A DNA stretch of 64,000 nt from a virus (IMGVR_UViG_3300022915_000001:1-64000), one strand, 5' to 3'; positions 9,101 to 63,775 are shown, numbered from the stretch's first letter. Notes: a model not told the origin generated them from the sequence alone. Numbers and translations: made by a program.

Positions 9101-12100
9101 CTTCAGGAGACCGCCCTTGAACTTCTCCCAGCCGCTCTTGTCGCCTTCCGAGCGCCGCGCCCTCTGCCGGTCGCGGATCTCAAGGAACCGTGTCGAGGGC
9201 TGGCTCGGCGTGCCGCCCAGCGTGGTCGAGCCGGGGACCGGCTGCTGCGTGGTGGTCAGCGCCTGCGGAGCCGCCGATTCCCGCAGGTTGACCGTGCCGG
9301 TCGAGGCGGCGTGCCGGGACGTGGCCTGGGCTTGGCGGTAGACCTGGCGTGCCACGCTCCTTGAGCCGCGCCCGAATCGGTCGACGATCTCGTTGGTGAA
9401 GTTCTTCCCGTCAATGTTCCCCTGCGCCACGTCGATGGCGATCTTCAGCGCCATGTTGCGGATGACTCTCGGATCGGTGAACTGACCGGAGTAGCTCGGG
9501 GAGATGCCCATGCTGCGGAGCCGCGCCTCGGCCTTCGCAGCGGCGTCGAACAAGGTCATCTGCACGGGCTTCGAGAGCGGCTTGGACGGCGTCGATGGCT
9601 TGGCCGGCGCCGTGGTGGTGGTCGTGGGCGGGAACAGTCCCATCTGCGTGGGCCGGGGCGTGGGCGTCCAGACCGGCGCATGGGTAGGATGGCTCGGCGG
9701 GGACGGGGCCGGTGGCGGCTTCGCCGGGGGAGTCGGAGTAGCGGTCGTCGTGGTGGCCGTCCCTTGATTGATATTGCGGAACGTGTTCTTCATGTCCCCC
9801 GGCTGGACATACTGGAACAGGAGAATGTGCGATTCGCCGTGCTTGGCGATGATCGACTCGCGGTAAGTTCTGGCGATCTCGATGCGGTCGGCCTGAGTCA
9901 GAGTCGGGATATTGTCGCCCGCCAGTACCTTCGCGGTGACCTCGGTGAAGATCGTATGTACATCACGGCCCGCATATCCCCCCGCGGTGGTGAGCAGCCA
10001 GTCCCCGGCCTTTTTGAAGACCGGCAGCTTCATGAGACGTTCTTCTTCAGCCGCATCCAGCGGAGCTTTGCGCTGATCGGCGTGGATCAACTCTTCACGG
10101 GCCGTCGATCTTTTCATCGGGAGCCGCTGCCCCGGTATGTTAGGGCCCTTCTGGGCCAGGGTAAATTGCAGCGATTCGGTCGCGTCTTTGGTCTGGTTGA
10201 TCCACTCAACCAGGTCATTCCTAAACTGTCTGAGGTTCGCCTCGGCGCGTGGGCCTACCCGCGCCATCTCCACAGGATTGTGGAGGAAGTCCTTCAAGAT
10301 CTTCTCTGCGACGTTAGTCCACCCCGCCCGGGCCCCGGAGAGGCCGTTGACGCTCTGGAGCTTGGCTACGTGGGAGATCAGGTCGAGACCGGCCCGATTG
10401 AGATAGATCGTGCCGCTGCCTACGTGATAGGCCATGCGCTTAGGCTTGCCGGGGGGAGTGGTCTTCTCCCATCGGAAGATCGCCTTCTCGAAGGCTTGCT
10501 TCTTGGGAGTCTGGGGCGGGTTGGTGTAGTACGTCCCCATCTTCAGATCGCCAGCGGCGCTCTCGGAGAGCTTGGCGTCTGAGTCTGAGGTTGGGGCGGT
10601 TACCTCTCGGTCGCTTCCGGTATGCTCGGATGCCTGAACGGGGGCGGTAGTTCCACTTCGACCTCTATGTCCAGCGGCTTGTCGTGATCGAACGGCTCTC
10701 CCCCTGCGAACACCAGTTCCAGGTACTCCGCTCTCGTCAAGGGATACCCCATCTTCTTCAGATACTTCAGAAGCGGATAACTGTCTTTCAGCTTCTCGAA
10801 ATCTCTCATACTCATCGGACCACTCGGGCGGTATGATGGCTTTTCCGTTGGCTGTGCTTTTTCTGAGGTCATAGATTTCTTCCCGCGCCTGGTCTACTGT
10901 TATTGTACCTGACGCATACTTTTCCCAGATAGCATCGACCCGTCTTTTGTTGTCGACATTCTTCCATGTCTCAGGGAACAGGCCGCGCACGGCTTCCCAG
11001 GTGACCGACTGCATCTCGCGTCCTAGAAGTCCGCGCCGCTGGCCGGCCCGCCTCGTGGCAATCGCATGGATGCCATAGGTCCAAGCCTCGCCGGTCACCG
11101 TGGACGGGGAGCTTAGATTGTCCTTGACGGCTTGATCGGACAGGGCCAGCGGCCGCAAGGTCCCGGCGGCTACGGCATGGGTATCGACGGTGACATGGAG
11201 GTTCGGGTTGTTCGGGTCGACAAGGTTGTTATAGAAGGACCGGACCTTGTGCTGCTTGCCCAGTTGATCGCTGATGTTTTCAAGAGTCGGATTCTCTAGG
11301 ACAGAGATGGCCTTGGCGATCATGTCCAGGGACTGCCAGACTACCTTCGCATCCGTGCCATCGAGCTTTTTGCCTTTGCCGCGGGGTTCGCCCTCGGGCG
11401 TGAGTACATCAAAGGACCGTTCGTTGTTCCCCTCGTCCCACATGCGCAGCCAGAAGGCTTTGAGGGTAGGATCGGTCAGATCGGTCCAGCGTTTCCCCTT
11501 GATCTGATCGTAGCCGTCCTTGAGTTTCGTCGACGGCGTATAGGGCTTGCCCGCCGCCTTGGCGTCCCGCTTCTTCGTGATCTCAGTCCGGTTGTTGGAG
11601 TCGACCATCCTCTGATAGCCGCCCTCCATCTTGTCGTCCCAGACCGAGGACTCGCGCTGCTTCCAGAACATGAGCGTGCGCCGCGCCAGGTCCACGTTCT
11701 GGAACCAGTCCTTCATCGGCGAGAGGGTTGCCATCACTGCGGCAACCTGATGAGCCTCGGAGTCGAACTGCTCGGCGAACCGCTCGGCGATCTTGCGGCC
11801 CCCGTCGTACCAGAGTTTGGACCGCTGGAGGAGATCGCCCCATTCTCGCTTGTAGCGGTCATAGAGCCAGACCAGATTGTCCTCAACGAACTTGGTGAAG
11901 TCGCGGACGATCTTCTTGGGATCGGTCTCCGTGCTGCCCTTGAGGTGCGGGTACTTGAGGATCAGCGGCGCGGCCACCTCGGCGGGCTCGTCGTACTTCT
12001 TGAACCCGTCGCCGGTCAGCGTCAGGTTCTCGGTGGAATCCTCGGTCGCGCTATCCGCGGTGGTGAGGCGCGTCGACATTTCCTCCGGTATGAACCGGAC

Positions 12101-15100
12101 GGGGTTGGCCTTCCACTCCTTGATCTGATCGACAACCTTGGCGGCCTTGGCTCGGTGCTTCTCGCCGTACCTGTCGACGATAGCCTGCTCTACGCTCTTG
12201 ATCCCGATCTTGCCTCGGGCGATATCGCCCATGAACGCCTTGGCCGTATTGTGAACGAAGTCCGCGCTGGTCGGCCCCGTCTTGCTGCGCGAGAACAGCG
12301 TACCCTGGCGCGGCGCATCCTTGTCCCCGAACAGATCCTGCTGCGCGTCCTTGGCCGGTTTGAGCTTGCGCTGCTTCTCCTCGGGCGTAAGCTCGGTGGC
12401 GAAGCCGGCCGTCAGCCGTTCGCCGAGCAGCTTGGCGGCGTCGTCGGGCTGCTCCTGCTTCTCTAGTTCAAGGGCGGTTTGTTCTCCGCGTCTCGGCCCC
12501 ACTGCTTCTTCAGCGAGTCTGCGAACGCCTCGTTCTCGTCCTTCCCTTCCTCCCTCGCCCTCTCGGCCGCCAGTTGGGCCGCGTTGAAGTTCGACACCGC
12601 TTTTCGGCTGAACCCCTTCGGCGCGGCCAGTATCTTTCTTGGTCGTTTCGCTGCCACGGAATGCCTCCTTCACCTCTCCGGGTTTGGCGTACCGGAACAG
12701 GACAATCGCGTCCTCGCCATGCGCGTCGAGCAACGCCTGCCTATATGCTTGCGCAACTTCCACGCGCTCGTCCATCGTGAGGCCGAGCGAGGTCCCCGCG
12801 AGTATCTTGGCGGTGACTTCCTTGAAGTCCTGAATGGGATCTGCCTCGTACCCCATCTCCCTCACCGCCTCGGCGGCCTTGGCGAAGACCGGCGTCTTCA
12901 TCAGGTCTTCCATGACCTGGTCTTTCAATGCAGCCACGCGCTGCGCGGCGTGCATCAACTCTTCGCGGACGGTGTTACGAATGTCGTCCGAGAAGTACTT
13001 CTGGGCGCGAACGAAATTCAAGCCGGCGCCCGGGCCCGCCGTCTCCCGGTACTTGGCTACTTGATCGCGGAGCTTCTCCAGGTTGTCCAGGGCGGCTTTG
13101 CTCAGGCCGTACTTACCGGCTTTGAGGTTTGCCAGTTCGCCGCCGTCGCGGTCCAGCGTCGTCATTAAGGTGACAACGTCAACGTCGTCCATCGAGGAGC
13201 CTTCCACGCGGTCCCCGCCGCCCAAAAGCTGGATGATGTACATGCCGCCCTGGTTCGCATAGACCGTGCGGCTCTGGGCTCCCCTCTTGGGGAAGCGGAA
13301 GGTTGCCGTCCTAAAGTTGTGTTCGGCCTCCCAGAGCGCGGAATCGGGGATTTGGGTTCCCTCGGGCGAGGTAACCGGCCCCGGCTGCTCCTGCTTCTGG
13401 GATCTGCTGAAGAGCGTGCCGCCTTTGCGCTCGGGCGAGGGGACCGCTCCCGGCGCTTCGCGCTCGGCGGCTTGCTGCGAGAGTCCTCCGGTATCCTGGC
13501 GGGGGACCGTCAGCGGTCCATCGGCGGGATCGGCGTTGGTGTCCTCGATCTGCTCCCTGATGGCCGCGCGAACCTTCCCGCCGTGCGCCCTGACCTGGGC
13601 CGGGGTCATCCCGGTGTGCTTCTTGACGAAGTCCACATACTCGGAATCCCGCGCGGATCGCTTCTGCTGCGCCGTGATGTACGCCGCGCGATCTACGTCG
13701 GATTCAAAGTTCAGTTCGTGGGCGCCGTACCGCGGCGCGGCTCCGCTGAGTTCCCTCGGGAGTTTCGGTCCTACTCCAGCGGGGGCGGCTTGAGAGGTTC
13801 CTCGCTGGGGTTGCTGAGTTCCACCTCCCCGTCCGGTATCTGGAGGTGGCCCCCCTCGATCCACTCCCGTAGGTCCGCTAACGTCCGGTTTCGGACCTCC
13901 TCCCCCAGTTTCTCGTATGATGGCTGCCTTGATTGCTGCATAGGTGTCCTCTAATACGGCAGAGAGCTTCTCCCCGCCCTGTATCCTGACCGCGCCGGCA
14001 GTCAGGGCTTTCGAGATATCGCCCGACTTCAGGCTCAGGGCGTTGTAGACTTCCAAAGCCTGAGCGGCATCGGCGGCGATGGCTCGGTTCTGCTCTTCTT
14101 CGATGACGTTGCCGCCACGCGCGAGCGTCTGGCCTACGCCCTTCTTGCCTACCGTGCCAAAGATCCGCTTCTCCTGACCGAGCCGCTTCTTGATAGCATC
14201 GCTGAGGATCGCCTCATGGACTTCCAGGCTCTGGCCCCCGCCGCTCGGGTCTCCGAACATATCCCCGAACAGGCTCCCCTGGTCGTCGCCCTTTTCCTTG
14301 GCCTTGCGAAGCCGTTCACGCTGCTCGTCGGTCAACTCCATCTCGGCGGCCTTGGCCTTGGTGCGTCGGATGAGTTCGGCCAACTGGCCGTCGTTCATGT
14401 CCTTGCCAACCTTGGCAATCGCTACCATGTCTGCTGGGTTGTCCAGACCTTCGCCGATAATGGTGGCCCTGTCGACCTTCAGATCCCCGGCCAGTAGCTC
14501 CTCGAAGAGCGACTCGGGCAGCTTGGCGAGCGCGGTCCCTTGCCGCGCCTTCTCGCCCTTGAGGTGGACGCCGGCCTGCTTTACCTGCTCGGGCGTGTAG
14601 CCCGAATCGCGCAGGAACTTGGCGGCGTCGATGGCGGTCCCCCGGCCCTCGGCGATATTCTGCAACGCGCCCTTGGCTCTGGCTTCCGTCGCGTCCTTGG
14701 CCTGGATGTAGCGAACGTCTACACCGGCCACTCCCATGCGCTTGGCCTTGTCGAGCCGGTGGTGTCCATTGACCACATAGGTCTTGCCGTTCGCTGGATC
14801 TCTCCAGACGGTGAGCACGCCGCCAAGCTCCTCGTTCCAGGGAACGTCTGGGTCCTTGAGTTCGTCACCGACTCCTGCCTTGCCGCCGGTATCGCGCTTG
14901 AACTGGAACCGCACCGGATCGGCTTCGATCTCGTTGGGGTCCATGCGCGTGACGCCACTGTCCATCGCCTTCCTGGCGGGCGGCTCCATGCCTGGGAAAA
15001 GCGAACTCTGGCCTTCCCCGCTGGTGTCCTTCGGCTCCCCTTGATCGACAACCGGAGTTGACGGTTCGACAACCGGAGTTGACGGCTCTGGAGCCGCTGG

Positions 15101-41924: not shown

Positions 41925-42040
41925 GTTTCACCTCAGAAAATCCACCGCGAATGGGACGGCCGGCGCTGCGCGGCATTGGCGATGGTGCGCTGGCGCCGGC
42001 CTCATCGAGGTGAAGTCGACAATTTGAGCGTAACACGCCC

Positions 42041-42069
42041 TTGCCGCTTTGCGCAAAAGAAAGTAAGAT
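42041..42069 (+). promoter_or_regulatory. sigma70-type promoter TTGCCG-N17-TAAGAT with CTTTGCGCAAA operator in the spacer
   Basis: Read directly; lies 15 nt upstream of ATG 42085. Confidence 0.7.
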
Positions 42070-42084
42070 CCCTTAGAGGGGGCC

Positions 42085-46717: not shown

Positions 46718-46941
46718 CGCGCCAGCACCCGTCTCACAATGCGGGACGCCTCCAGCCCGTTGTCCTGCTCCAGATACTCCCCGTCCTTGAGTTGCATCAT
46801 CCCCCGCAGAAGAGAAATCCTCTCCTCGGAGAAATCCCCGCCTACGAACTTCACCGTGCAGATACAACACACCGGCTTCTGCGCCACATACGCGAAAAGG
46901 TCCTTCTCCAGGTCCGTCCCGCAGATTCTGCACTGTTTCAC
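46714..46941 (-). CDS. Small zinc-finger protein
   Basis: CRIC...CCIC; RBS GAGGTGAA before GTG 46941. Confidence 0.55.
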   Translation of the reverse strand: MKQCRICGTDLEKDLFAYVAQKPVCCICTVKFVGGDFSEERISLLRGMMQLKDGEYLEQDNGLEASRIVRRVLAR

Positions 46942-46963
46942 TGCAACTTCACCTCTCCAGGAC

Positions 46964-46992
46964 ATGCTACCTGGTCTTTGCGCAAATCACAA
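46964..46992 (-). promoter_or_regulatory. sigma70-type promoter TTGTGA-N17-TAGCAT with TTTGCGCAAAG operator in the spacer; drives the MTase operon
   Basis: Read directly on the minus strand. Confidence 0.7.
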
Positions 46993-47229
46993 TGCCGTAG
47001 ATCCGCGTAAAGGGATGCCCAGAAACACGAACGCCCCGGCATATCTGATCTGCCAGGGCGAAACGTGCGTTAAATTTTCCTGCGGAACGTCGATTTACGC
47101 CCTGAGCGTATCACGAAGCAACCGTTTTCACCAAATAGAAAAAAACCGCTTGCACTGCAACCGCTTTCGGGAGCAAGATTGGAATCGTTAAATTGCTCTG
47201 CCAGTCCGCTGCTGATCGAGCGTCGATCT

Positions 47230-49330: not shown

Positions 49331-49777
49331 ATGAAACAAGTGAACCGCAAAGTCGAAGGGACCGCAACTGTGATCCGGTTGGGATCGTGGATGAGCGCGA
49401 CGGGGCCGCAGTGGGAAAGCCCGAGCGTGACGTTCGCCATCGCCGGGGAGGATCTGACGTGGAGGGCGAGTGACGAGCACGCCGTAAGGGATCTCATGGA
49501 GGGGGAGGAAGTCTGGATACGTGGCTTCGTCAACGCCGAGGGCCGCATCACACGGGTCAAGTTCTGGCGCGGTCAGCCGGTGGAGGACGGGCCGAGCGCC
49601 GAGCAGAAGGCGGCTCTGGCGAAGTTCGCGGCGGCGAACGGGAGGACGTGGAAGCAAGCTCTGGGGCATTGCTGGATGACGGGCATCTACAGCCGGTCTG
49701 ACGATGCCGGTTACTTGCAGCAGGTCAGGAACCAGTTCGGGCCGTCGTGGCTGATGCGGTACAAGCTCACCAGCTAG
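49331..49777 (+). CDS. Early-region hypothetical protein
   Basis: RBS GGAAGGA. C-terminal EQKAALAKFAAANGRTWK...LQQVRNQFGP recurs in mobile-element proteins. Confidence 0.6.
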   Translation: MKQVNRKVEGTATVIRLGSWMSATGPQWESPSVTFAIAGEDLTWRASDEHAVRDLMEGEEVWIRGFVNAEGRITRVKFWRGQPVEDGPSAEQKAALAKFAAANGRTWKQALGHCWMTGIYSRSDDAGYLQQVRNQFGPSWLMRYKLTS

Positions 49778-49857
49778 TGAAACCGGCGGTGATACGCCGG
49801 TAATCGGGGGATAGCCTCCCCGGTCATGAAGATCAGGCTAGGTGAAGGAAGAGAGCA

Positions 49858-50154
49858 ATGAAGTCGATAATACTGGGGCTGCTCCTTGCAGCGATGATGT
49901 ACGGCGAGGCGGTCCATTTCGGAGCGAACTCGAAGGTGTTTCACACGTCAACGACGTGCAGCGCCAAGGGCGGGAAGCACAAGCTCACGTCAGAGCGCAG
50001 CGTAGCCGAGGCCCACGGGATGCGGCTGTGCAAGCGGTGCGCCGGTCATGCGGCGGCTTGCACGACGGACGCCGACTGCGAGGCCAAGGCGAAGGCGAAG
50101 GCGGCGAAGACGGGCAACGGCAAGTGGGCGCAGGTAGCGCAGGAGGTGAAGTAG
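49858..50154 (+). CDS. Secreted small protein with His/Cys metal-binding motif
   Basis: Signal peptide MKSIILGLLLAAMMYG; FH...C...AEAHGMRLCKRC. Confidence 0.6.
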   Translation: MKSIILGLLLAAMMYGEAVHFGANSKVFHTSTTCSAKGGKHKLTSERSVAEAHGMRLCKRCAGHAAACTTDADCEAKAKAKAAKTGNGKWAQVAQEVK

Positions 50155-50156
50155 TC

Positions 50157-50603
50157 ATGGCGATGACAACGGAAGCGTGGCGCGAGGTGATGATCGCGAT
50201 GCCCCCGGCGCAGTTGGCGGCGGTGAAGGCGGCGATGGAGACGCTGAGGGCGTGGCCCGAGTTCAACCGGGAGTGGGGCTGGACGGGGATCAAGTCGCTG
50301 GAGGTGACGGCGGCTTACGCGATGGAGCACCAGCGCAACGGGGGCCGGGGCTGGATGGATCAGACGCCCGAGGAGCGGCGGCGGTACTACGACGGGGCCG
50401 AGTGGCGGTTCGTCGATCCGCTCCCGGCGGTCAACGTGGACCAGTTGCGTGAGCAATGGGAGGGGGAAGACCTGGAGTTGCTGAACGAGGCGACGAAGGG
50501 CTGTGAGGGGGAGATGACGTGCCGGGAGTTGGCGAGGCGGCTGAACAACGTGGGCGGCGTCATCACCGAGGCAGAGTTGGAGGCGATGACCGGGGCTAGG
50601 TAA
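50157..50603 (+). CDS. Early-region hypothetical protein
   Basis: RBS GGAGGTGA; MAMTTEAWREV... Confidence 0.55.
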   Translation: MAMTTEAWREVMIAMPPAQLAAVKAAMETLRAWPEFNREWGWTGIKSLEVTAAYAMEHQRNGGRGWMDQTPEERRRYYDGAEWRFVDPLPAVNVDQLREQWEGEDLELLNEATKGCEGEMTCRELARRLNNVGGVITEAELEAMTGAR

Positions 50604-50682
50604 GCATCGCGGAGGCGGCTCTGTCGCAGCAGAGCCGTTGCCACTGGGATGATTCCCGAATTCTTGATACGAGGTGAAAGAC

Positions 50683-51228
50683 ATGACTGGATTGTTAGGC
50701 GACGTGAAGCAGTGGGCGCTGGTGCTCGAAGGCGGGGACGGGGGCCGGGGCTTCCCGAGCCGAGTGTACCTGTACCCGAGCCGGGATGCGGCTGAGAAGG
50801 GGTTGCAGGACTACGTGCGGCGCAACGGCGGCTTCGAGGGGTTGGAGGACGACGAGGACAACTTCGACATGGACGACGCGATCCGCGAGTACTTCGACGA
50901 GGAGCGCGAGGACTACTCCATCGGCGTGGTGCTCGAACCGGAGCGCGTGGTGATCGAACCGGCACTGGCGGTCCCGCCGGTAACGTGGGGGCCTGAGAAC
51001 CCCGAGGTTGCGCGGCTGACCCGTGAGGCGCTGGAAGCTGGCCGCTGGTTCTGGCTGAAAGACGCCGTGGGCGAGGAGGCGACGATGAGCGCGTGCCAAC
51101 GGTACGCCTACAGCCGGTTGAACAACGAGCTACTGGCTCTGGGTGCGCCGGTCCCCTCAGGGGACGAGTTGTATGAGTGGGCGTTGGCGAAGTGGGGCAA
51201 GGACCGGCTGCATCCCAAGGGCCGGTAA
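50683..51228 (+). CDS. Acidic early-region hypothetical protein
   Basis: Starts right after leader copy 1. Confidence 0.6.
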   Translation: MTGLLGDVKQWALVLEGGDGGRGFPSRVYLYPSRDAAEKGLQDYVRRNGGFEGLEDDEDNFDMDDAIREYFDEEREDYSIGVVLEPERVVIEPALAVPPVTWGPENPEVARLTREALEAGRWFWLKDAVGEEATMSACQRYAYSRLNNELLALGAPVPSGDELYEWALAKWGKDRLHPKGR

Positions 51229-51295
51229 GTCTCGCGGCGGCGGCTCTGAGTGTGAACAGAGCCGCACACTGGGAAACTTCCCGAGGTGAAAGAAC

Positions 51296-51496
51296 ATGGC
51301 AAAAGCAAAGGCAATCCTTCCGAGCCTGGATCGCGTGATGGCGGCAGTGCGTTCGGACGAGTTCATGGCGTTCTGCGTGGCGTGCGGGGACGAGGCGTAT
51401 GGCCTGGAACCGGACACTCGCGCCGAGCCGTGCGAGGCGTGCGGCAAGAAGGCTGTTTTCGGAGCGCAGGAACTGCTGCTCAGGATGGTGGCGTGA
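51296..51496 (+). CDS. Zinc-ribbon protein
   Basis: FCVACG...EPD...CEACG...VFGA, a recurring phage family; follows leader copy 2. Confidence 0.65.
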   Translation: MAKAKAILPSLDRVMAAVRSDEFMAFCVACGDEAYGLEPDTRAEPCEACGKKAVFGAQELLLRMVA

Positions 51497-51771
51497 TGGC
51501 GGCGGCAACGACGGCAACGCAGATGATCGTGGCCGTGGGCCAGATCGTCCAGTGGAACGTGGGCGGCGTGGCGGTCCAGGTGATCGTGTGCGACGTGAAG
51601 ACGGCGTGGGGCAAGAACCGGCTGCTGATCGAGCCGAAAGCCGGTCACGGGCGCGTCTGGGTCGAACTGTCCAGCGTCTCGCTCCCGGCGGCGGCGGCGT
51701 TCCAGTGCGCGGTCTGCCGTGGCGGGATCGAAGTGAACGGCGCGTGCTGGGAATGCGGGGACGTGCGATGA
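51496..51771 (+). CDS. SH3-like plus zinc-ribbon small protein
   Basis: VCDVKTAWGKNRLLIEP...CAVC...CWEC. Confidence 0.55.
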   Translation: MAAATTATQMIVAVGQIVQWNVGGVAVQVIVCDVKTAWGKNRLLIEPKAGHGRVWVELSSVSLPAAAAFQCAVCRGGIEVNGACWECGDVR

Positions 51772-52085
51772 AGATCCTCGTGACCGGGAACACGTACCCT
51801 CATCGCGTGGCTCTCCGCGCAATGGGCGGCGAGTGGGATGCGGGGAGCAAGGGCTGGAGGTTCGACGAGGCTGACGCCGAGGCGGCTCGTGAGATCGTGG
51901 CCGGTCCCGCACCGGCCAAGCGCGTGACCGGCGGCGGTTCGCGTGGGCGGTTCGGGCGCAAGGGCGGCGGCGGCTCAGGCATGGGCGGGGAGATCATCTA
52001 CACGACGTTTTCCTCAGGGGAGACGGTGTACCGCAACGCCCGAGGGCGATGCGAGGACGCGCCCTGTTGCGGTTGTTGCTCCTGA
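51768..52085 (+). CDS. Small protein ending in RGRCEDAPCCGCCS
   Basis: N-terminal GNTYPHR..LRAMGGEWD...W domain, Gly linker, Cys-rich tail. Confidence 0.65.
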   Translation: MKILVTGNTYPHRVALRAMGGEWDAGSKGWRFDEADAEAAREIVAGPAPAKRVTGGGSRGRFGRKGGGGSGMGGEIIYTTFSSGETVYRNARGRCEDAPCCGCCS

Positions 52086-52165
52086 CTCAGAAAGCATCGC
52101 CGAGGCGGCTGTGACAGAGCCGCACTCTGGGATTCTTCCCGAAATTCAAACCGAGGTGAAACGAG

Positions 52166-52447
52166 ATGGGCATGACGATTGAGAAACGGGTCCAGGTGAC
52201 GCTGGACTACACCGCCGACGAGTGGGAGTTGTACTCTCACCGGCAAGGCGCGGCTGATGCGGCGTATGAGATCAACGTCGCGATTGAGACGGCGGTCAAC
52301 GCCGGTCTGACGCGCCGGGAAGTGGAGACGGCGCTCGATCCGGTGATGCACCGGCACGCCGATCTGGGCGCGTTGGACGGTGAGCCGCTCTCGAAGCTGG
52401 AGCGCATTCTGGACAAGATCTACGGCAAGGAGGCGCGGCGATGGTAG
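52166..52447 (+). CDS. Early-region hypothetical protein
   Basis: Follows leader copy 3. Confidence 0.6.
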   Translation: MGMTIEKRVQVTLDYTADEWELYSHRQGAADAAYEINVAIETAVNAGLTRREVETALDPVMHRHADLGALDGEPLSKLERILDKIYGKEARRW

Positions 52448-52926
52448 GGCTGACGCAGGACGAGACGATGGCGGCGGTTCTCGCCGTCCTGAACCGGCGC
52501 GGCGTGAAATCGACGCTCGAATACCCCGGCTATCTGCAAGTGGGCTTGCAGCAGTACGGCACGACGGGCGAGACGTGGAGCGGGGACGTGTACGAGAGCG
52601 AGAAGGCGTTCCTCGAAGGCGAAGCGCCGATAGAGTGCCTGACCTCCGATATCCCGGTCGAGAGCGCGGACGTGAAGCGCATCGCCGACTGGATTACGTG
52701 CAACCAGTTGCTGCCCAAGCCTGACCGGCAGCGCCAAGCGCGGCGCGAGGCGATGCAAGCCAAGTGGAACACGGCTATGAGCCTCCTGCTCGAATTGGCC
52801 GAGGACGACGACGCCTTCAACGACGCCGTGGACGAGGACCACGGCGGGAAGTACGAACTGGAGGAGTCCTTCGACGAGTGGGTCTTCGCGACGATGGTCA
52901 AGGTGCGGTTCGTCCCGGCGAAGTAG
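52441..52926 (+). CDS. Early-region hypothetical protein
   Basis: Acidic 161-aa ORF. Confidence 0.55.
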   Translation: MVGLTQDETMAAVLAVLNRRGVKSTLEYPGYLQVGLQQYGTTGETWSGDVYESEKAFLEGEAPIECLTSDIPVESADVKRIADWITCNQLLPKPDRQRQARREAMQAKWNTAMSLLLELAEDDDAFNDAVDEDHGGKYELEESFDEWVFATMVKVRFVPAK

Positions 52927-52987
52927 CGCGGCGGCGGCATTCTCGCGAGTGCCGTCCACTGGGAAACTTCCCGAGGTGAAAGAAAGC

Positions 52988-53533
52988 ATGACGAAGAAAG
53001 AAGCGATGACGATGGCGGCTGAACTGGCCGTGGCATTGGGCGCGAAACGGGGCAAGGGGTTCACCGGCCATCGCTGGCTGATGGTCCCCGGCTCCTGCCT
53101 GATTGCCTACGTGACCGGCGGCGATCACGGGCTGCGGTATGTGGTTCGCCACAACGACGGCGAGGACGTGTGCAGCGTGCGGCTGATGAAGGGCGACGGG
53201 CGCATGAAGACGTTTCAGGAGACGGTGATCGGCGAGTCGATCCGGTTTGACCGGCAGTCGATTGTCGAGGCCATCTGGGCGAAGGCGGGAGCGCAGCATG
53301 AACTGCGGACGCCTGACCGCTGGCCCTACCGGCCCATGACCGAGGCAGAGGCCAAGGTCAAGGCGGTCGAGACGGCGGCGCTCAACGAGGGCCGCGAGTT
53401 CCAGGCAGTGCCGGTCAGGTACGGGAGCGGCGAGACCGGCTGGGACGTTTCGCCGGTCGATCTGGACGAGCGCGTGGCGGCGGCACTCCGCGCCGAGCAC
53501 GAGCGCAGCCTGTCGAAGAGGTGGCCCGAATAG
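52988..53533 (+). CDS. Early-region hypothetical protein
   Basis: Follows leader copy 4. Confidence 0.6.
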   Translation: MTKKEAMTMAAELAVALGAKRGKGFTGHRWLMVPGSCLIAYVTGGDHGLRYVVRHNDGEDVCSVRLMKGDGRMKTFQETVIGESIRFDRQSIVEAIWAKAGAQHELRTPDRWPYRPMTEAEAKVKAVETAALNEGREFQAVPVRYGSGETGWDVSPVDLDERVAAALRAEHERSLSKRWPE

Positions 53534-53680
53534 GGCCGCTTCGAGCGCCGGTCACGCGCGGCTGACTCCTGGAGAATCAAGGCCGGCCGGCCTTGGCGGC
53601 CCAGACCAGGCCCACGGGAGAGCTGCGCCTGGTGCGCGAGCGCCGGCAATTTTCCCAAAAAAACAATGTAACCGGCACGA

Positions 53681-53716
53681 ATAAAGTTGCGTCGTTACAT
53701 TTGATCGTGACAGAAT
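53681..53716 (+). promoter_or_regulatory. Early promoter TTGCGT-N18-CAGAAT with A-rich upstream element
   Basis: Near-duplicate of the promoter at 57763-57799. Confidence 0.55.
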
Positions 53717-53738
53717 GAAAGACGAGGTGAAACAAGAC

Positions 53739-54443
53739 ATGGCAAATTTCCGAGACTACTTCGCGTATAACCGCGACACCGATCAGAGCGAACGGATGGC
53801 AATCCCCGAGTGGGCGCTTGCCGCCGGTTTCGAGGACGCTTCCTACTCCAACGACGTGGCGGCGCAGATGACGCTGAAGTCGAACCCGTGGATCGCGCTC
53901 TTTGTGAGCGAAGAGCATCCGCTCAACCGGGAGTACCCCGACGAGCCGCGCTACGGTCTGGGCGTGTTCCCGCTCTACGACGGCGATACCGGCGAGGCTG
54001 AGTTCTTCCTCAAGTCCGACGACGAGGCTGAGATCCTCGCGTTCCTCGCGTCCCCGCCGCCGAGGTTCACGGCGATGGCGGCTCCCGGCGCGGAGGGCGC
54101 GGCTGACCGGCCCAAGCCGATCCGGTGCGCCAGTGAGCACTGCCATCAGGAGGTGCAGCCGGTCCCCGCCGGTCTGGACCCGTCCTTGTGCGCGTTGTGC
54201 AACGCAGAGGCGGCTGAAGAGAAGTTTGAAGCCGAGCGCAAGGCGTGGGCGCGGCGTCACGGCATCGCCCAGCGCATGGTGACGGTGACCGTGGCCTCCG
54301 AGGACGGCGAGGTGCTCGATCAATTCGAGGTGCGCCACTGGCAGGACGAGGACATGGGCGAGGACGCCGAGGGCGTCTGGTCTGGCGCAGCCGAGGGGTT
54401 GCTCACGGCGCGGATACGCCGGTACGTTCACGACGGGCAATAG
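53739..54443 (+). CDS. Early protein, paralogous domain A (IPEWA...GFED.S)
   Basis: Shares its N-terminal domain with 54517 and 55791. Confidence 0.65.
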   Translation: MANFRDYFAYNRDTDQSERMAIPEWALAAGFEDASYSNDVAAQMTLKSNPWIALFVSEEHPLNREYPDEPRYGLGVFPLYDGDTGEAEFFLKSDDEAEILAFLASPPPRFTAMAAPGAEGAADRPKPIRCASEHCHQEVQPVPAGLDPSLCALCNAEAAEEKFEAERKAWARRHGIAQRMVTVTVASEDGEVLDQFEVRHWQDEDMGEDAEGVWSGAAEGLLTARIRRYVHDGQ

Positions 54444-54516
54444 GCTCACAAGGGACCGGCGCACGCCGCCGGTTCAAGTGCGAATCTATCGCAAATTCCG
54501 AGACGAGGTGAAGACA

Positions 54517-55284
54517 ATGACCGAATACGATGCGGCAGAACTGGACCGCGAGATGCAGGGCCACAAGATCCCCATGTGGGCGTGGAAGGCGGGGTTCGAC
54601 TGGAACTGGTTTCGCGACGACGAGATCAACTCCATCGGCGGGACGCGCGGGATGGCGCGGCTCTGGATCGCCGACAAAGGCAAGGAATCGCCCTGCCGCT
54701 ACACGCTGCTGAACAGCGTCATCGACACCGACGAGACGAAGACGTTTCTCAGGACCGACGACGCCGCTGACGTGATCGCCTTCCTGGCCGATCCCCCGGC
54801 TGAGTGGACGGCGTGGGAAGTGGCGAACGAGATCATGCACGATGCAACCGATTTGGGCGGCAAGGGGTTCGCGCTGGCCGAGATCAAGTGCTTCGAGGAT
54901 CTGCACAACCATCTGGACCCGAACGAGTACGGCTCCAGCGCACGGCAAGCGGCTGACGGCACGCCGGGAGCGCCGGGATGGCATCCCGACGAAACGCTCG
55001 ATTGCGCGTACTGGAACGACGTTCACGAGCGCGTCGATCAGTGGATCAGAAACGGCTTCTGCTTCGCACGCATGAGGGCCGAGCAGCGGTACGCCAAGGC
55101 GAAGAAGCTGCTCGCCGAGGCGGTGGAGGCGGGGATGGTGTACGGCGCTGCCGTCCAGACCTTGCAGGACGAGATGCGCGTGGCCTTCTCAGACAACCTG
55201 CTCGTCATCAGCGAAGCCGATATCGAGTACGGCACGACGTTCGATCAGTTGTGCGATGCCGTGGGCGTGGAGGTGTCGAAATGA
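54517..55284 (+). CDS. Early protein, domain A plus C-terminal domain B
   Basis: IPMWAWKAGF...LRTDDAADVIAFLADPP; C-terminus LLAEA...Y..A...L...MRVAFSDN. Confidence 0.65.
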   Translation: MTEYDAAELDREMQGHKIPMWAWKAGFDWNWFRDDEINSIGGTRGMARLWIADKGKESPCRYTLLNSVIDTDETKTFLRTDDAADVIAFLADPPAEWTAWEVANEIMHDATDLGGKGFALAEIKCFEDLHNHLDPNEYGSSARQAADGTPGAPGWHPDETLDCAYWNDVHERVDQWIRNGFCFARMRAEQRYAKAKKLLAEAVEAGMVYGAAVQTLQDEMRVAFSDNLLVISEADIEYGTTFDQLCDAVGVEVSK

Positions 55285-55724
55285 CGGCGCTCTCGCCCGA
55301 GGCCATCGCCGAGACCATCTACGTCAAGGCGTGCGAGGCCAAGCGCGGCTGGAATCCCACGGTGACGCCGCCGCGCCTGACCAACGACCAGAAGTGGGCG
55401 GCGGCGGTGATCGCGTGGGGGCAGTTCCGCGCCGATTACCGCCGGTCTTTGAAGCGCCACGGCGAGTGGCACGAGGTCTGCGAGGGCATGGACGCCAAGA
55501 TCCAGGCGTATGCCTTGGAGGGCGGCGACGGCGGCGTGTCGGTCTGGGCCGACTACTGCGACGACTTCCAGTACGTCTGGGACGTGCTGGAGGCTATGGG
55601 CGCGGTCTGGGAGATACCGGACGAGGCGCAGGACGAGGACGACTGGCAGTGCGGCGGCGGCGAGACCGACGCCATCGAAGAGGTCATGGACATGGTGAAC
55701 AGTCCCGGCTTCGAGCGCCGGTAG
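55281..55724 (+). CDS. Acidic early-region hypothetical protein
   Basis: ATGA-coupled. Confidence 0.55.
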   Translation: MTALSPEAIAETIYVKACEAKRGWNPTVTPPRLTNDQKWAAAVIAWGQFRADYRRSLKRHGEWHEVCEGMDAKIQAYALEGGDGGVSVWADYCDDFQYVWDVLEAMGAVWEIPDEAQDEDDWQCGGGETDAIEEVMDMVNSPGFERR

Positions 55725-55790
55725 AGTGTCGCGGAGGGCGCAGTGACAGTGCGCCACGCTGGGATACTTTCCCGAGAAGAGGTGAAGGCA

Positions 55791-56330
55791 ATGGCAAAGT
55801 TTCAGGATTACTACGACCAGGAGATTCCCCAGTGGGCGCTGGACATGGGGTTCAGCGACTGGAGTTGGCACGGCGATCTGGCCGCGATCATGAAGTGGGA
55901 CCGGCATACCGGCGTGGGCGCGGAGAACGGCGTGTCGCTCTGGGTAGGCTTCGAGATCGACAGCGACTACTTCGCTGGCTGCGAGAAGCAGCCGCGCTTC
56001 CAGGTGACGGTCGAAATCGGCCACTCGTCCACGACGTACCTGGAGACCGAGGACGAGGACGAGGTGCGCCGGTTCCTCCAGGAGCCGAGCGGCGCATTCC
56101 GGGCGGCGCTGGACGAGGCGAGGGCGGCTGAGGGGTACAACGGCGTGGCGGCGATGCTCTCCGACGCCAAGGCGGCACAGGAGATCTACTGGAGGGCGCT
56201 GGACGAGTTGGCGAAGCAGATGCGCTTTGCCTTCGACAACGACTCGATCACGCTGGAGCGCACCAAGGGCGCGGCGCTGCCGAGCCTTCCCGCGCTGGTG
56301 CAGCTGTACGAACTCCACGAGGAGCGGTAA
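55791..56330 (+). CDS. Early protein, domain A plus domain B
   Basis: IPQWALDMGFSDWS...LETEDEDEVRRFLQEP...MLSDA...YWRALDELAKQMRFAFDND. Confidence 0.65.
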   Translation: MAKFQDYYDQEIPQWALDMGFSDWSWHGDLAAIMKWDRHTGVGAENGVSLWVGFEIDSDYFAGCEKQPRFQVTVEIGHSSTTYLETEDEDEVRRFLQEPSGAFRAALDEARAAEGYNGVAAMLSDAKAAQEIYWRALDELAKQMRFAFDNDSITLERTKGAALPSLPALVQLYELHEER

Positions 56331-56396
56331 GCATCGCGGAGGGCGCACCGGCAAACTGTGCGCCGCTCTGGGATTCTTTCCCCTGAGGTGAAGACG

Positions 56397-56645
56397 ATGA
56401 AGTACAGAAGAACGGCTGAGAACCGGGAACGCGCGGCGCGAGCCGAGGGCGTGCTGCTCTCCTATGCCAAGTGGTGCAACGAGGAGGCCATCTCCGATTC
56501 GACCGTGCGTGACCTGATCCAGGACATTATGCACTGGGAGGCTTGCGAGAACAAGCTGACCGGCGACAAGGCGCGGGACTCCGTTTCGGCGGCGTGCGAG
56601 ACGGCGTGGTGGGACTTCGCCAACGAGACGGGAGGGCGGTCATGA
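56397..56645 (+). CDS. Small helical phage protein
   Basis: NRERAARA..VL..Y...DLIQDIMH pattern; follows a leader copy. Confidence 0.6.
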   Translation: MKYRRTAENRERAARAEGVLLSYAKWCNEEAISDSTVRDLIQDIMHWEACENKLTGDKARDSVSAACETAWWDFANETGGRS

Positions 56646-56857
56646 CCGTGCGCGAGGTCTTCTTCGTAGAGGAGGTGCGGCGCGTCCGGTCCCGCTCGAA
56701 GGTGCGCGACGTGTTCATGACCGTGGCCGAGGCTGCGGACGCGATCAAGGCGTGGGAGCGCGACGACGCCTTCGCGCTGGGGCCGTACAAGGCGGCGAAG
56801 ATTCGCCGCCATATCGTGCGCGGCGTGGCCGAGATGCTTGAGGAGGTGTCCTGGTGA
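56642..56857 (+). CDS. Hypothetical protein
   Basis: ATGA-coupled. Confidence 0.5.
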   Translation: MTVREVFFVEEVRRVRSRSKVRDVFMTVAEAADAIKAWERDDAFALGPYKAAKIRRHIVRGVAEMLEEVSW

Positions 56858-57153
56858 GGCGGCGCTGGCGCGAGGCGCTGGTACTGGCGGCTGGACCGGC
56901 GGCGGTCCTCGCCGCCCTGCTCTGGGCCTGGTCACCAGGCGCGGACCAGGCGCACAAGGCCGGCCGCGAAATCGCCGGCGACTGGCCGGCAGCCCTCGAG
57001 ACCGACGCCGCGGCGAACGCGGCCGGCCTTGCCGGTTGCGTGACCGACTGGGAGTGCGAGCTCGCCGAACGGGCGGCTATCGCCGCTTTCGAGATCCTAT
57101 GCTTCGAGGGGAAGGTTCCCTGCATCGACCGCAGGAAAGAGGTGAAGAAATGA
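56854..57153 (+). CDS. Membrane-anchored small protein
   Basis: Basic N-terminus plus hydrophobic segment. Confidence 0.45.
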   Translation: MRRRWREALVLAAGPAAVLAALLWAWSPGADQAHKAGREIAGDWPAALETDAAANAAGLAGCVTDWECELAERAAIAAFEILCFEGKVPCIDRRKEVKK

Positions 57154-57527
57154 TGACAACGAAACGGGCGTGGACGCTGATGTACCGCGCCATGCGGACG
57201 GGCCGGTCCTGCCAGACGGCTGCCGGGGATTACCGGGAGTGGTGTGCGCGGGACTTCTACGGGAACCGGCCCGAGGGCGTGAGCGAGGAGGCGTGGCGTG
57301 CCTTCTGCGACTACGCCGAGGAGGAGGCCGACTGTGCGCGGCGCGGCGTCAGGCGGCTGCTCTGGAAGGCCACGTACCTGAACGCCGGGGGCAAGGTGCT
57401 CTCGCGCTACGGCCAGTGGTACAGCGTGTCCGATTATCTGGGAGCGCCCGAGCGGCATCTCAGGATCGAGGCGAGCTTCGCCCAGCGGCTCAAGCGGTGC
57501 GCCGAGATCGCACGGGAGATCCAGTGA
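57150..57527 (+). CDS. Hypothetical protein
   Basis: RBS GAGGTGAA. Confidence 0.55.
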   Translation: MMTTKRAWTLMYRAMRTGRSCQTAAGDYREWCARDFYGNRPEGVSEEAWRAFCDYAEEEADCARRGVRRLLWKATYLNAGGKVLSRYGQWYSVSDYLGAPERHLRIEASFAQRLKRCAEIAREIQ

Positions 57528-57748
57528 TGGACGCCCACGATTCCCGGCAGGACTACGGCACGCCCGAGGAGATCATGGCGTGGGTCATGGCGAAGCCGGT
57601 CAACCGGCGCGTGCGCGTGCGGTGCGGCTCCTGCTACGCGCAGGATCTGGAGACGTGCGCTCACCAGCCTGACCGAGTCAGGTGCGGCTACTGCTACGCC
57701 CGAGGGGAGCAGCACTGTCCGCACGCAGGCGCACTCACGGGCGGCTGA
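57527..57748 (+). CDS. Cys-rich small protein with tandem RVRCGxCYA
   Basis: Two RVRCG[SY]CYA motifs. Confidence 0.5.
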   Translation: MDAHDSRQDYGTPEEIMAWVMAKPVNRRVRVRCGSCYAQDLETCAHQPDRVRCGYCYARGEQHCPHAGALTGG

Positions 57749-57762
57749 ATGATCGTGCCGCA

Positions 57763-57799
57763 AATAAAAGTTGCGGCGGGTATTTGAAAGTGTCATCAT
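57763..57799 (+). promoter_or_regulatory. Early promoter TTGCGG-N17-CATCAT; -35 lies within inverted repeat GCCGCAA-N7-TTGCGGC
   Basis: Read directly; paralogous to the promoter at 53681. Confidence 0.55.
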
Positions 57800-57817
57800 C
57801 ATAGAGAGGTGAAGTTC

Positions 57818-57994
57818 ATGTTTGGAAAACGGTTCGACAAATTCTCCGAGGCCGAGCAGACGCTGATCGCGTCCGCGCTGGGCATCGCGATTTCGTATTG
57901 GCAGATCGATGCGGCTGCCGCGCCGGTCCTGGCCGAGAGTTTCGGCAAGTTTACCGGCGAGGCCCAGAAGCTCCGCGAAGAGTTGGGGTACTAG
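57818..57994 (+). CDS. Hypothetical protein
   Basis: RBS GAGGTGAA then ATG 57818. Confidence 0.55.
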   Translation: MFGKRFDKFSEAEQTLIASALGIAISYWQIDAAAAPVLAESFGKFTGEAQKLREELGY

Positions 57995-57998
57995 GGCG

Positions 57999-58238
57999 AT
58001 GGCGAAGCGCACCTATGTACATGGCGAGTGCTTTGGGAGCGTGTTCCGCTTCTCGCAGACCAAGTGGCGGCTCATGCTGAAGGAAGTGGCCGCTGGCCGG
58101 GACGTGGACTACGCCAAGTACGGCGTCGAAGTGGCCGTGATCGATCACCACATAACGGACCTCTGGCAGGAGGACGCCGTCGAACTCCTGAAGGATTCGA
58201 CCATGCGGCTGACCAAGAAACAGAGGCGCGGCGAGTAG
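57999..58238 (+). CDS. Hypothetical protein
   Basis: MAKRTYVHGECFG... Confidence 0.5.
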   Translation: MAKRTYVHGECFGSVFRFSQTKWRLMLKEVAAGRDVDYAKYGVEVAVIDHHITDLWQEDAVELLKDSTMRLTKKQRRGE

Positions 58239-58312
58239 GAAAGCATCGCGCGTGCGGCACTGATTCGGACAGTGCCAATCGCGGGACATTTTCCCGAGGT
58301 GAAACAACAGCA

Positions 58313-58600
58313 ATGGTATTGACGATTTTGCAATGGAGGGCTTACGGAGACGACGAGGACTGCCTCAGTGTCGCGCTCTACAACGACGACGCGAGCACCG
58401 ATCACGGGTTCGATCAGGCGCGGCGTCTGGCGAAGCGGGAAGCCAAGCAGCACGGGCTGCGCTACGATCCCGACGCCGAGAACATGGGCGATGAACCGGA
58501 CGATCTGATCTTCATCAACTCGCTGACCTACGACGACGGCGAAGTGCTGAAGGCCAACAACGGCAAGAAGTACAAGATCCGTTTCGAGGAGGTGCAGTGA
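58313..58600 (+). CDS. Acidic hypothetical protein
   Basis: Follows a leader copy. Confidence 0.55.
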   Translation: MVLTILQWRAYGDDEDCLSVALYNDDASTDHGFDQARRLAKREAKQHGLRYDPDAENMGDEPDDLIFINSLTYDDGEVLKANNGKKYKIRFEEVQ

Positions 58601-59055
58601 TGGACAGGCAAAGATACCTGACGCGCAAGGACGAGAACGTGGGCGTGGGCGAGTTCGACAGTATCGCGTGGGCCTTCGAGGTCCACGTCAAGCAGCCAGA
58701 CCGGCCCGAGCTTCAGTTCGCCGTGATGCACGGCCACAACGAGGACGCGCCCGACTACATCGACTTCTACCAGCAAGCCGAGCCGTCGTACTTCGACGTA
58801 CCGGCCTTGACCTGGCGTGCCGAGGCGGCCAAGATCCTCGCAGGCGACGAAGGGGACGATCCGCTGGCCGAGTGCCGGCGGCTCCTGGAGGCGGCGCAGG
58901 ACGCGCAGTACGCCTACGAAGATGCGCTGGGCCGTCTCGAGCGCGGCATGGAGAAGGTATTCGGCGAATCGCTCGAGATCGAGGGCGAGGATATCTCCGA
59001 GGGCGTGGACCTCGAAGACCTGATCGCGCAGCACGGACTGGAGATGCCCAAATGA
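58597..59055 (+). CDS. Early protein with C-terminal domain B
   Basis: LLEAAQDAQYAYEDALGRLERGMEKVFGESLEIEGEDI, similar to the C-termini of 54517 and 55791. Confidence 0.6.
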   Translation: MMDRQRYLTRKDENVGVGEFDSIAWAFEVHVKQPDRPELQFAVMHGHNEDAPDYIDFYQQAEPSYFDVPALTWRAEAAKILAGDEGDDPLAECRRLLEAAQDAQYAYEDALGRLERGMEKVFGESLEIEGEDISEGVDLEDLIAQHGLEMPK

Positions 59056-59648
59056 GCGCGACGAAGGAGTGGCATTTCTTCTACGATCACGCGCCGTTCT
59101 CGTTCAACCGCGCCAAGGAGACGCAACTCGAAGGCAGGATGCGGTGCGCCAACGAACTGATGATGGCCGAGGAGTACGCCAAGGAGTCCGACTGGGAGTA
59201 CGACTGGGATATCGATCCCGACGCCGAGCCGGTCGATCCCGCCGACAAGGACGAGGCCGGGGAGGCGCTCTACTGCCGGTTGGTAAACCGCCACGGTCTG
59301 GTGCTCGAATCGCTCTACGGGATCTGGGAGCCGACGAAGGAGTACCGGCGCGTCGTGGAAGCCGAGCTTGCGCTGGAGGCGATGGCACGCGAACTGGGAA
59401 TGGCGCGGCCCTGCGGGCAATGCGGCCGGCCGGTTTCCAAAGGGCCGGTTGGCTACGACGAGGAGTGCCGGTGCGCCGAGCACGGCGGCGAGACGACGCC
59501 GGTCCCGCTGACCGACGACGATCTGTGCCTGCTGATTACCGGCTGCGACGATCACGAGGGCCAGGAGTGCTTCGAGGAACTGGGGAGGCGCTTACGGGCG
59601 GCTCGCGTCGAGTTCCGCGTGCGCCGCCGGGGAGCGTTGAAGCGGTAA
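59052..59648 (+). CDS. Hypothetical protein with zinc ribbon
   Basis: SLYGI...YRRVVEAELA recurring phage motif; CGQC...CRC. Confidence 0.6.
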   Translation: MSATKEWHFFYDHAPFSFNRAKETQLEGRMRCANELMMAEEYAKESDWEYDWDIDPDAEPVDPADKDEAGEALYCRLVNRHGLVLESLYGIWEPTKEYRRVVEAELALEAMARELGMARPCGQCGRPVSKGPVGYDEECRCAEHGGETTPVPLTDDDLCLLITGCDDHEGQECFEELGRRLRAARVEFRVRRRGALKR

Positions 59649-59716
59649 GAGAGTCGCGGAGGGCGCACTCGCGGTGAGTGCGCTCCGCTGGGATTCTTTC
59701 CCGTTGAGGTGAAGAC

Positions 59717-60100
59717 ATGAATGAGAAGAGACTCGCCGAGGCGGTGCTCGATTGGATGGCGAACAACCAGCCAGCGGAACGCAAGAAGCAGTGCGCCCAT
59801 TGCGCGAACACTGCCGCGCAAGGCAGCGCGTTGTGCGACGACTGCATCGCCGCCAAGCTGGGACCGGACGTGAGCGTGGGGGCCTGGTCCAGGATTTCCG
59901 AGATGCCGCCCAAGGACTGGCGGCTGCGCTGCGCCATGTGCGGCGCTCTGGACGGCCTCGCGCACCACGATGCCATGCAGAACGGCGTCGTCGTGGCGCT
60001 GCGCCGCAGCCGGTTGCGGAACCGCTGGGAGTGCCAGCCCTGCAACGCCGGGATGGCGGCGCTCAGGCGCGACGAGAAGCGAAAGAAGGCGGCGAGATGA
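59717..60100 (+). CDS. Double zinc-finger protein
   Basis: CAHC...CDDC and CAMC...CQPC. Confidence 0.6.
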   Translation: MNEKRLAEAVLDWMANNQPAERKKQCAHCANTAAQGSALCDDCIAAKLGPDVSVGAWSRISEMPPKDWRLRCAMCGALDGLAHHDAMQNGVVVALRRSRLRNRWECQPCNAGMAALRRDEKRKKAAR

Positions 60101-63725: not shown

Positions 63726-63755
63726 TTGCCAATGTACATCGAATTACCGTAGAAT
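63726..63755 (+). promoter_or_regulatory. sigma70-type promoter TTGCCA-N18-TAGAAT
   Basis: Followed by RBS GAGGTGAA. Confidence 0.5.
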
Positions 63756-63775
63756 CTTAAGTGAGGTGAAACCGA

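Follow-up and report, generated by a model that had tools for sequence, protein, structure and literature searches.

The phage sequence IMGVR_UViG_3300022915_000001 carries a repeated RNA module, 55 to 75 bases long, between small accessory genes. The source record is a 73,209-bp IMG/VR virus rated complete, and the window analyzed here is its bases 1 to 64000, with a G+C content of about 64%; the phage is called G000 below. Structural genes, the terminase among them, lie at about 6 to 42 kb on the minus strand, and many small genes without a Pfam family are found on the plus strand from about 49.8 kb. In the island formed by these small genes (49777 to 60100), an initial annotation made from the sequence alone had placed eight copies of a double-hairpin leader. 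The eight copies are indeed there, each flanked by a stop codon on one side and by GAGGTGAA and an ATG start codon on the other. Each runs from a conserved 5' box through a hairpin of variable sequence (stem 1) to a small hairpin with the strands GGGA and UCCC (stem 2) and a Shine-Dalgarno (SD) sequence. GAGGTGAA occurs 20 times in the window versus 1.65 expected, and for two stem-2 patterns, 7 and 9 matches were counted where about 2 are expected. Moreover, all eight copies fold better than their dinucleotide shuffles (z scores of -2.2 to -4.2). A chance origin of the eight copies is excluded.

The position of the module follows a simple rule. Of the 24 gene junctions in the island, 12 overlap or nearly touch (-7 to +4 nt) and 12 are spacers of 61 to 205 nt. 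The twelve spacers consist of the eight canonical copies, two variant double hairpins (49778 and 54444), and two host-type promoters (53687-53716 and 57771-57799). Both promoter spacers lack a copy, and thus the copies lie within operons; they look as if they sit inside three of them. The label "early genes" that the initial annotation gave to the island is an assumption. The two odd copies that it reported, at 49778 and 54441, are genuine double hairpins before an SD sequence (z scores of -3.3 and -2.7), and they share the stem ACCGGCG/CGCCGGT. The covariance model described below misses both. In the related lineage L295, a canonical copy takes the position of the variant spacer at 49778.

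Covariation and competing folds

The upper part of stem 1 differs in nearly every copy yet always pairs, with 9 to 13 Watson-Crick and 0 to 3 G.U pairs per copy. When 31 sense-strand copies from seven lineages were aligned with a covariance model (R2; E values below 1e-4), 82.9% of the alignment cells paired versus 68.4% in shuffles, and the covariation score was 0.412 versus 0.185. Neither value was reached by any of 500 shuffles, and a set of 26 copies agreed with the result. Alignments slid out of register paired in just 32 to 50% of cells. The outer helix compensates between lineages (CGG/CUG, CAGGGAG/CUCCUG, CGCG/CGCG, CCGG/CCGG, CGCA/UGCG, and CCCAU/GUGGG), and clean swaps that leave the loop unchanged occur between related copies (GGCUCUG/CAGAGCC versus GGCACUG/CAGUGCC). 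RNAalifold, run on the model-fitted alignment, recovered no more than the hairpin base, owing to the differing lengths of the upper stems. The stem-1 pairs listed in the initial annotation check out, and the compensatory changes that it had proposed are real. Also as annotated, no U-tract follows stem 1.

The pairing is strand specific. When each strand was folded, G.U pairs in the upper stems numbered 34 in the sense orientation and 7 in the antisense, and the sense strand was the more stable in 20 of 26 copies (mean of 2.15 kcal/mol; Wilcoxon P value of 1.3e-4). Therefore, it is the sense strand that is constrained, most simply as the transcript, which fits the RNA signal that had been suspected. 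The strand result argues against a cruciform, a template-strand hairpin promoter, and an attC-like site on the bottom strand.

The order of elements had been described as a TCGCGG block, stem 1, an ACNCT-like spacer, and stem 2. All of these are present, but the conserved 5' box is longer than stated, (A/G)AGNNUCGC, and often overlaps the stop codon, and the TCGCGG block pairs with the ACNCT spacer as an outer helix. Moreover, the box is complementary to GGGA and the loop of stem 2, and this pairing extends the hairpin downward. Thus, one irregular hairpin can form from which stem 2 is excluded, and two folds compete. The earlier picture of two hairpins was therefore incomplete. The long fold has 13 to 21 bp, a 5' arm of 15 to 25 nt, and an energy of -21 to -38 kcal/mol. 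Folded in context, 17 of 26 copies are predicted to be dominated by the long fold and 9 by stem 2.

Pairing in the lower stem of the long fold reaches 79% of cells and is confined to a single register. Box position 4 faces loop position 2 as U-A in eight copies, A-U in five, and C-G in one, and the remaining 17 of the 31 copies are unpaired there. In copies of the G006 type, the CGC of the box is replaced by CCC, which faces GGG. These changes are hints in favor of the lower stem, which would also explain three odd invariants, namely, the box itself, the Y-U with which the loop ends, and the U that precedes UCCC. Stem 2 is invariant except in one variant copy (GGGC). Exposure of the SD sequence and start codon is predicted to be 0.576, versus 0.524 with shuffled spacers and 0.547 with foreign ones (P values of 0.004 and 0.014). 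Masking of the true SD by an anti-SD sequence was considered and dropped, as CCUCC occurs in only about five copies.

An insert of about 12 bases, T containing and of the type GAAATTCTTG, separates stem 2 from the SD in two of the eight copies (50658-50670 in the copy at 50602 and 52141-52152 in the copy at 52092). The same type of insert is found in three copies of the related phage G002 (contig L059, positions 12753, 13659, and 14537), and elsewhere the SD comes directly after stem 2.

Family and gene order among relatives

The module belongs to a family that is spread over related uncultured phages. A covariance model built from 22 copies (R1) found 8 copies in G000, 9 in G001, and 7 in G002, with E values of 1e-9 to 5e-12 for those of G000. 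No further sense-strand matches were found in these three genomes, which were scanned whole, and only weak mirror matches appeared on the opposite strand. Six related uncultured soil phages supply 23 copies beyond the eight of G000. Additional lineages (L295, G005, G006, G008/G009, and G010) were reached via the conserved first gene of the island and the terminase, and the DNA of G000 itself was found in many soil and leaf-litter metagenomes. Every copy sits on the coding strand.

Known families did not account for the module. The initial annotation had named an Rfam match as a result that would refute its proposal; none reached the gathering score in the window, and only chance-level matches were seen elsewhere in 49500 to 60000. 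Scans of viral and bacterial collections with short motifs returned mostly single chance matches that the covariance model rejected, and no full copy was present among the at least 80 bacterial loci listed. The sequence family and its two-fold design appear to be undescribed, and the kind of phage gene punctuation to which they belong is known already. The module could readily be proposed as a new Rfam family.

Gene order changes around the copies. The structural genes of the relatives are colinear at 70 to 78% identity, and the island shares only short, scattered, and reordered pieces; it is a hyperplastic, shuffled ORFan region. The first six copies of L296 alternate with single genes, and a gene-copy-gene arrangement in G000 (A-copy-B) corresponds to A'-copy-X-copy-B' in L296. 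Copy 7 moves together with its downstream gene between G000 and G002. Moreover, one upper stem and its loop, 20 identical nt, occur in both G000 (50602) and L296 (17389), with unrelated flanking genes on both sides. Several breakpoints elsewhere fall at overlapping stop-start junctions or inside genes, and a close strain variant (about 97% identical where compared) retains the copy order. Contigs from four metagenome runs gave no well-supported joint at a copy. The proposal that the module anchors cassette swaps may apply to some gene gains and swaps, which are bounded by copies in an island whose gene order differs between relatives, but not to the breakpoints at overlapping junctions.

One exchange was seen in a strain variant. 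In one soil run, 197 nt at the start of gene 58597-59055 (window 58603-58801) are exchanged for 412 others, and the left break falls at a gene boundary rather than at a copy.

Candidate functions of the module

The closest parallel may be the RNase III signals of phage T7, five of which are carried by its early RNA (R0.3, R0.5, R1, R1.1, and R1.3) (PMC3867540). Cellular substrates of RNase III are helices of about 20 bp or less, and an internal loop in the substrate leads to a single-strand cut that leaves a stabilizing 3' hairpin (PMC3867540). The module resembles these signals in being an irregular hairpin of about two turns, conserved in its lower part and placed between the cistrons of one phage transcript, with an upstream product that is expected to carry a protective hairpin at its 3' end (PMC3867540). 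Every copy is placed after a stop codon and before an SD sequence, on the coding strand of predicted operons and away from the promoter spacers, and the predicted helix, with its internal loop, falls in the size range of about two turns. The module differs in having no sequence likeness to the T7 signals, in a small second hairpin, next to the SD, that contests one of the two lower-stem strands, and in an upper stem that varies in nearly every copy. Moreover, the phage looks temperate.

By this analogy, we tentatively favor an explanation to which we give somewhat less than an even chance: the module would be an intercistronic signal for mRNA processing and stability, like the T7 RNase III sites, and its conserved flanks would double as recombination joints. 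In size and shape, the long fold is like such substrates. The copies would be cis-acting RNA modules within the polycistronic messages of a hypervariable accessory-gene island. Just past the upstream stop codon, the RNA would fold as one long irregular hairpin, with a lower stem formed by the box and the GGGA/loop strand and an upper stem that is free in sequence. The conserved lower part would then be cut, either by an RNase III-like double-strand endoribonuclease of the host or, at the box, by some other endonuclease. The upstream cistron would end in the stable upper hairpin and be shielded from 3' exonucleases, and the freed GGGA strand could refold with UCCC as stem 2, capping the 5' end of the downstream message before the SD. 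In this way, each cassette would gain a defined, context-independent message end and start, and, as a by-product, the 15 to 30 nt of near-identical sequence that flank the variable stem could serve as homology for cassette swaps. The slightly raised exposure of the SD, itself a prediction, fits such an insulating role. No RNase III was found to be encoded by the three phage genomes searched, and the Csy4 and RAYT (REP-associated tyrosine transposase) families likewise had no match in them.

Several points weigh against processing by an RNase III-type enzyme or limit how firmly it can be held. The copies are kin, and hence significance is overstated in comparisons with shuffles; kinship does not affect the slid-register control or the count of pair types. 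The lower stem, where the cut would fall, does not covary significantly on its own (79.0% of cells paired versus 77.3% in shuffles, a value reached by 45 of 500), because its columns hardly vary. Neither fold of the conserved part is proven, as stem 2 never varies, and both may form. Strict conservation of GGGA...UUCCC across lineages exceeds what RNase III needs and hints at a sequence-specific partner, and the effect on SD exposure is small. No host, which would supply the RNase, was found: the terminase is only about 25% identical to those of cultured phages, and atlas matches were to viruses only. Finally, structure, covariation, strand, position, and family can be read from the sequences, whereas cleavage, refolding, stabilization, and recombination are what we infer.

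If a processing or insulating role holds, the module would be nature's equivalent of the RNA insulators in synthetic operons and a compact part for high-GC hosts. The accessory regions of phages hold many unknown and rapidly swapped genes, and how these are correctly expressed in new neighborhoods is poorly understood. Here, the case is unusually clean, with 31 copies in seven lineages, a free yet pairing stem, invariant flanks, and junctions that either overlap or carry a module. In a more elaborate version, which we consider improbable, the module would be a two-state RNA device. A dedicated, as yet unrecognized nuclease or binding protein would act on its long fold by reading the invariant GGGA-loop-UUCCC, and a cut or the arrival of a ribosome would flip the RNA to stem 2. 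Every ORFan cassette would thereby receive the same message ends and translation start, and the flanks would be crossover points. If true, the device would be a phage counterpart of the integron, with its logic at the RNA level.

Competing folds need not imply cleavage. The ribosome that terminates at the upstream stop codon might cover the box, melt the lower stem, and let GGGA flip to stem 2, or a phage or host protein might bind GGGA-loop-UUCCC; either event would set the translation of the next cistron or keep its SD free. The stop codon lies inside the box or at most about 16 nt before it, the two folds are predicted to be nearly equal, and neither stem 2 nor the U preceding UCCC changes in any copy with a GGGA stem bar the GGGC variant, which suggests sequence-specific recognition. 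The raised SD exposure also points this way, with the same reservation about its size. A translational switch or insulator of this kind is nevertheless rather unlikely in our estimate, as the SD is predicted to be free in both folds, leaving no evident on/off logic, and the conserved small proteins, none of which matches Pfam, included no recognizable RNA-binding protein. A role in transcription instead is suggested by the promoter-early stem-loop (PeSL) cassettes of T4-like phages, which are repeated stop-to-start stem-loops with an SD in hyperplastic ORFan regions, where gains and losses are bounded by copies (PMC2839356, PMC4122927). The layout of stop, stem-loop, SD, and ATG in a hyperplastic ORFan region (PMC2839356) is that of the island, where some insertions and deletions are likewise bounded by copies. 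The variable hairpin could attenuate or terminate transcription, and GGGANNNT with a preceding TG could restart it as an extended -10 promoter, making each cassette its own unit. Indeed, CTGGGANNNT is readable as TGn plus GANNNT, with positions 2 (A) and 6 (T) nearly invariant, and the G.U pairs are compatible with a terminator hairpin that acts as RNA. What defines PeSLs, however, is a strong sigma-70 promoter whose upstream part is AT rich (PMC2839356, PMC4122927), and no such early promoter with -35, -10, and AT-rich upstream elements was found in the copies. They lack the TTGCNN -35 and their hexamer begins with G, whereas all six recognized phage promoters combine TTGCNN with a (T/C)AnnAT -10. 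A promoter scan found no promoter-like site within any copy, the hairpin has no following U-tract, and in the roughly one-fifth of copies with the SD directly after UCCC, the transcript start would fall within the SD. No phage sigma domain was detected, sigma-70 region 2 being below threshold in three genomes; in the search for a single-subunit RNA polymerase, the control matched in no genome. We therefore give the transcription cassette a low probability, on a par with that of the two-state device.

Two alternatives remain, a recombination joint and a DNA-level site. Were the module mainly a recombination joint, its conserved flanks would be kept for the homologous insertion, deletion, and swapping of cassettes without breaking genes, and the hairpin would be secondary. 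The contrast between colinear structural genes and a reordered island, the extra copy-bounded gene and the alternation of copies with single genes in L296, and the 20-nt stem and loop shared between unrelated genes all favor it. A homology anchor needs no pairing, yet the stem keeps pairing by compensation, with a preference for the sense strand; overlapping junctions and gene interiors account for several breakpoints, and the strain variant leaves the copy order unchanged. As the primary function, recombination seems quite improbable, slightly more so than a cassette promoter. Least probable, and in our judgment very unlikely, is a site recognized as DNA, whether an integron-like attC site used by the tyrosine recombinase of the phage or a mobile palindrome like the repetitive extragenic palindromic (REP) sequences and bacterial interspersed mosaic elements (BIME). 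The likeness to integron attC sites consists of conserved complementary ends around a variable center that keeps its structure, in an array of promoterless cassettes of the same sense, and a tyrosine recombinase gene present in all relatives lies 5 kb downstream of the copies. That recombinase is generic and Xer-like: against the integron integrase family TIGR02249 it scored 37.2 bits (cutoff of 265), and its best matches, to Xer-like families, were also below their cutoffs. The module differs from attC in having no core sites or IntI-type integrase, in folding better on the sense than on the bottom strand, and in being tied, copy by copy, to the next SD; its conserved ends are AAGCAUCGC and CUGGGA...UCCC rather than RYYYAAC and GTTRRRY. 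Nor does a REP-like element fit, as no Y1 transposase (PF01797) was matched in the three phage genomes; the at least 80 bacterial loci listed, which carry the short motif, held no full copy.

A final parallel is with the start-associated sequences (SAS) of cluster K mycobacteriophages and their extended forms (ESAS), which are repeats of one orientation, confined to the nonstructural half of the genome and placed just before start codons, with an inverted repeat and variable spacer upstream (PMC3203893). Departures from the ESAS repeat are reported not to support RNA pairing, and a DNA-binding site is favored by the authors (PMC3203893). The 13-bp SAS consensus, which in those phages lies 3 to 8 bp before starts, had here one two-mismatch match, outside the island, versus 2.07 expected. 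In place of the 17-bp inverted repeats of ESAS, with a fixed consensus and nonpairing departures, the module is free in sequence and keeps pairing.

Coordinates, promoters, and neighboring genes

Table 1. Copies, variant spacers, and internal promoters of the island (window coordinates; E values from covariance model R1; z scores from dinucleotide shuffles)
Feature	Span (strand)	Box or -35	Stem 2 or -10	Spacer	SD	ATG	E value	z score	Remarks
Copy 1	50602..50678 (+)	50602-50610	GGGA-N4-TCCC 50646-50657	13 nt	50671-50678	50683	1.1e-9	-3.5	Variable upper stem; upstream stop 50601-50603
Copy 2	51227..51290 (+)	51227-51235	51271-51282		51283-51290	51296	5e-11	-4.0	
Copy 3	52092..52160 (+)	52092-52100	52129-52140	12 nt	52153-52160	52166	3e-11	-2.3	
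Copy 4	52921..52980 (+)	52921-52929	52961-52972		52973-52980	52988	6e-11	-3.3	Box includes upstream TAG stop
Copy 5	55724..55786 (+)	55724-55732	55761-55773		55779-55786	55791	9e-10	-2.7	
Copy 6	56329..56392 (+)	56329-56337	56370-56382		56385-56392	56397	7e-12	-3.0	
Copy 7	58241..58303 (+)	58241-58249	58283-58295		58296-58303	58313	5e-12	-2.2	Outer helix CGCG/CGCG
Copy 8	59649..59713 (+)	59649-59657	59690-59702		59706-59713	59717	4e-11	-4.2	
Variant spacer	49778..49857 (+)					49858		-3.3	Before first, conserved island gene; two hairpins, then AGGTGAAGG; unmatched by R1 or R2
Variant spacer	54444..54516 (+)				54505-54512	54517		-2.7	Two hairpins, first stem same as at 49778
Internal promoter	53687..53731 (+)	TTGCGT 53687-53692	CAGAAT 53711-53716	18 bp	53724-53731				No copy; read by eye against five other phage promoters
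Internal promoter	57771..57813 (+)	TTGCGG 57771-57776	CATCAT 57794-57799	17 bp	57806-57813				No copy

The two internal promoters belong to a set of six host-type promoters, the others being at 1200-1330, 42020-42080, 46940-47010, and 63726-63770 of the window. All six have a TTGCNN -35, a 17- to 18-bp spacer, a (T/C)AnnAT -10, and an SD sequence 6 to 9 nt beyond the -10, and their messages would start almost at the SD. The -35 of the promoter at 53687 is too weak for the promoter scan. Directly before it, positions 53534 to 53686 hold several GC-rich palindromes and a short T run, as well as CTCCTGGAG, a sequence similar to the 3' side of a copy. This stretch may be the end of the first operon.

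The phage looks temperate from its integrase and host-type promoters. The Xer-like tyrosine recombinase gene, which all relatives keep, lies at 64781-65626. Among 20 proteins of the island and its neighborhood, 19 had no match in Pfam and the remaining one had a weak match below the cutoff (DUF4307). An N4-like phage with hairpin promoters was suspected from a 3701-amino-acid open reading frame (ORF) at 6179-17284 on the minus strand, but this reading was rejected. DUF7178 and part (the end) of a portal PHROG are all that the ORF matches, its identity as an N4-type virion RNA polymerase was unsupported by every search made, and strand also argues against an N4-like hairpin promoter, as the hairpins favor the sense and not the template strand.

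Two features of the relatives deserve mention. When G001 (contig L058) is compared with the near-identical metagenome contig L296 (8454-20231), the differences are mostly about 127 single-base insertions or deletions that break small ORFs of G001. These look like assembly errors, and L296 serves as a clean version of G001. Placed on L296, the two ends of G001 share about 760 nt, G006 is classed in IMG/VR as having direct terminal repeats, and the island adjoins the ends of the record in both. Finally, the first gene of the island (49858-50154) encodes a protein of 98 amino acids with a hydrophobic N terminus and conserved His/Cys positions, and its kin head the island in five lineages.

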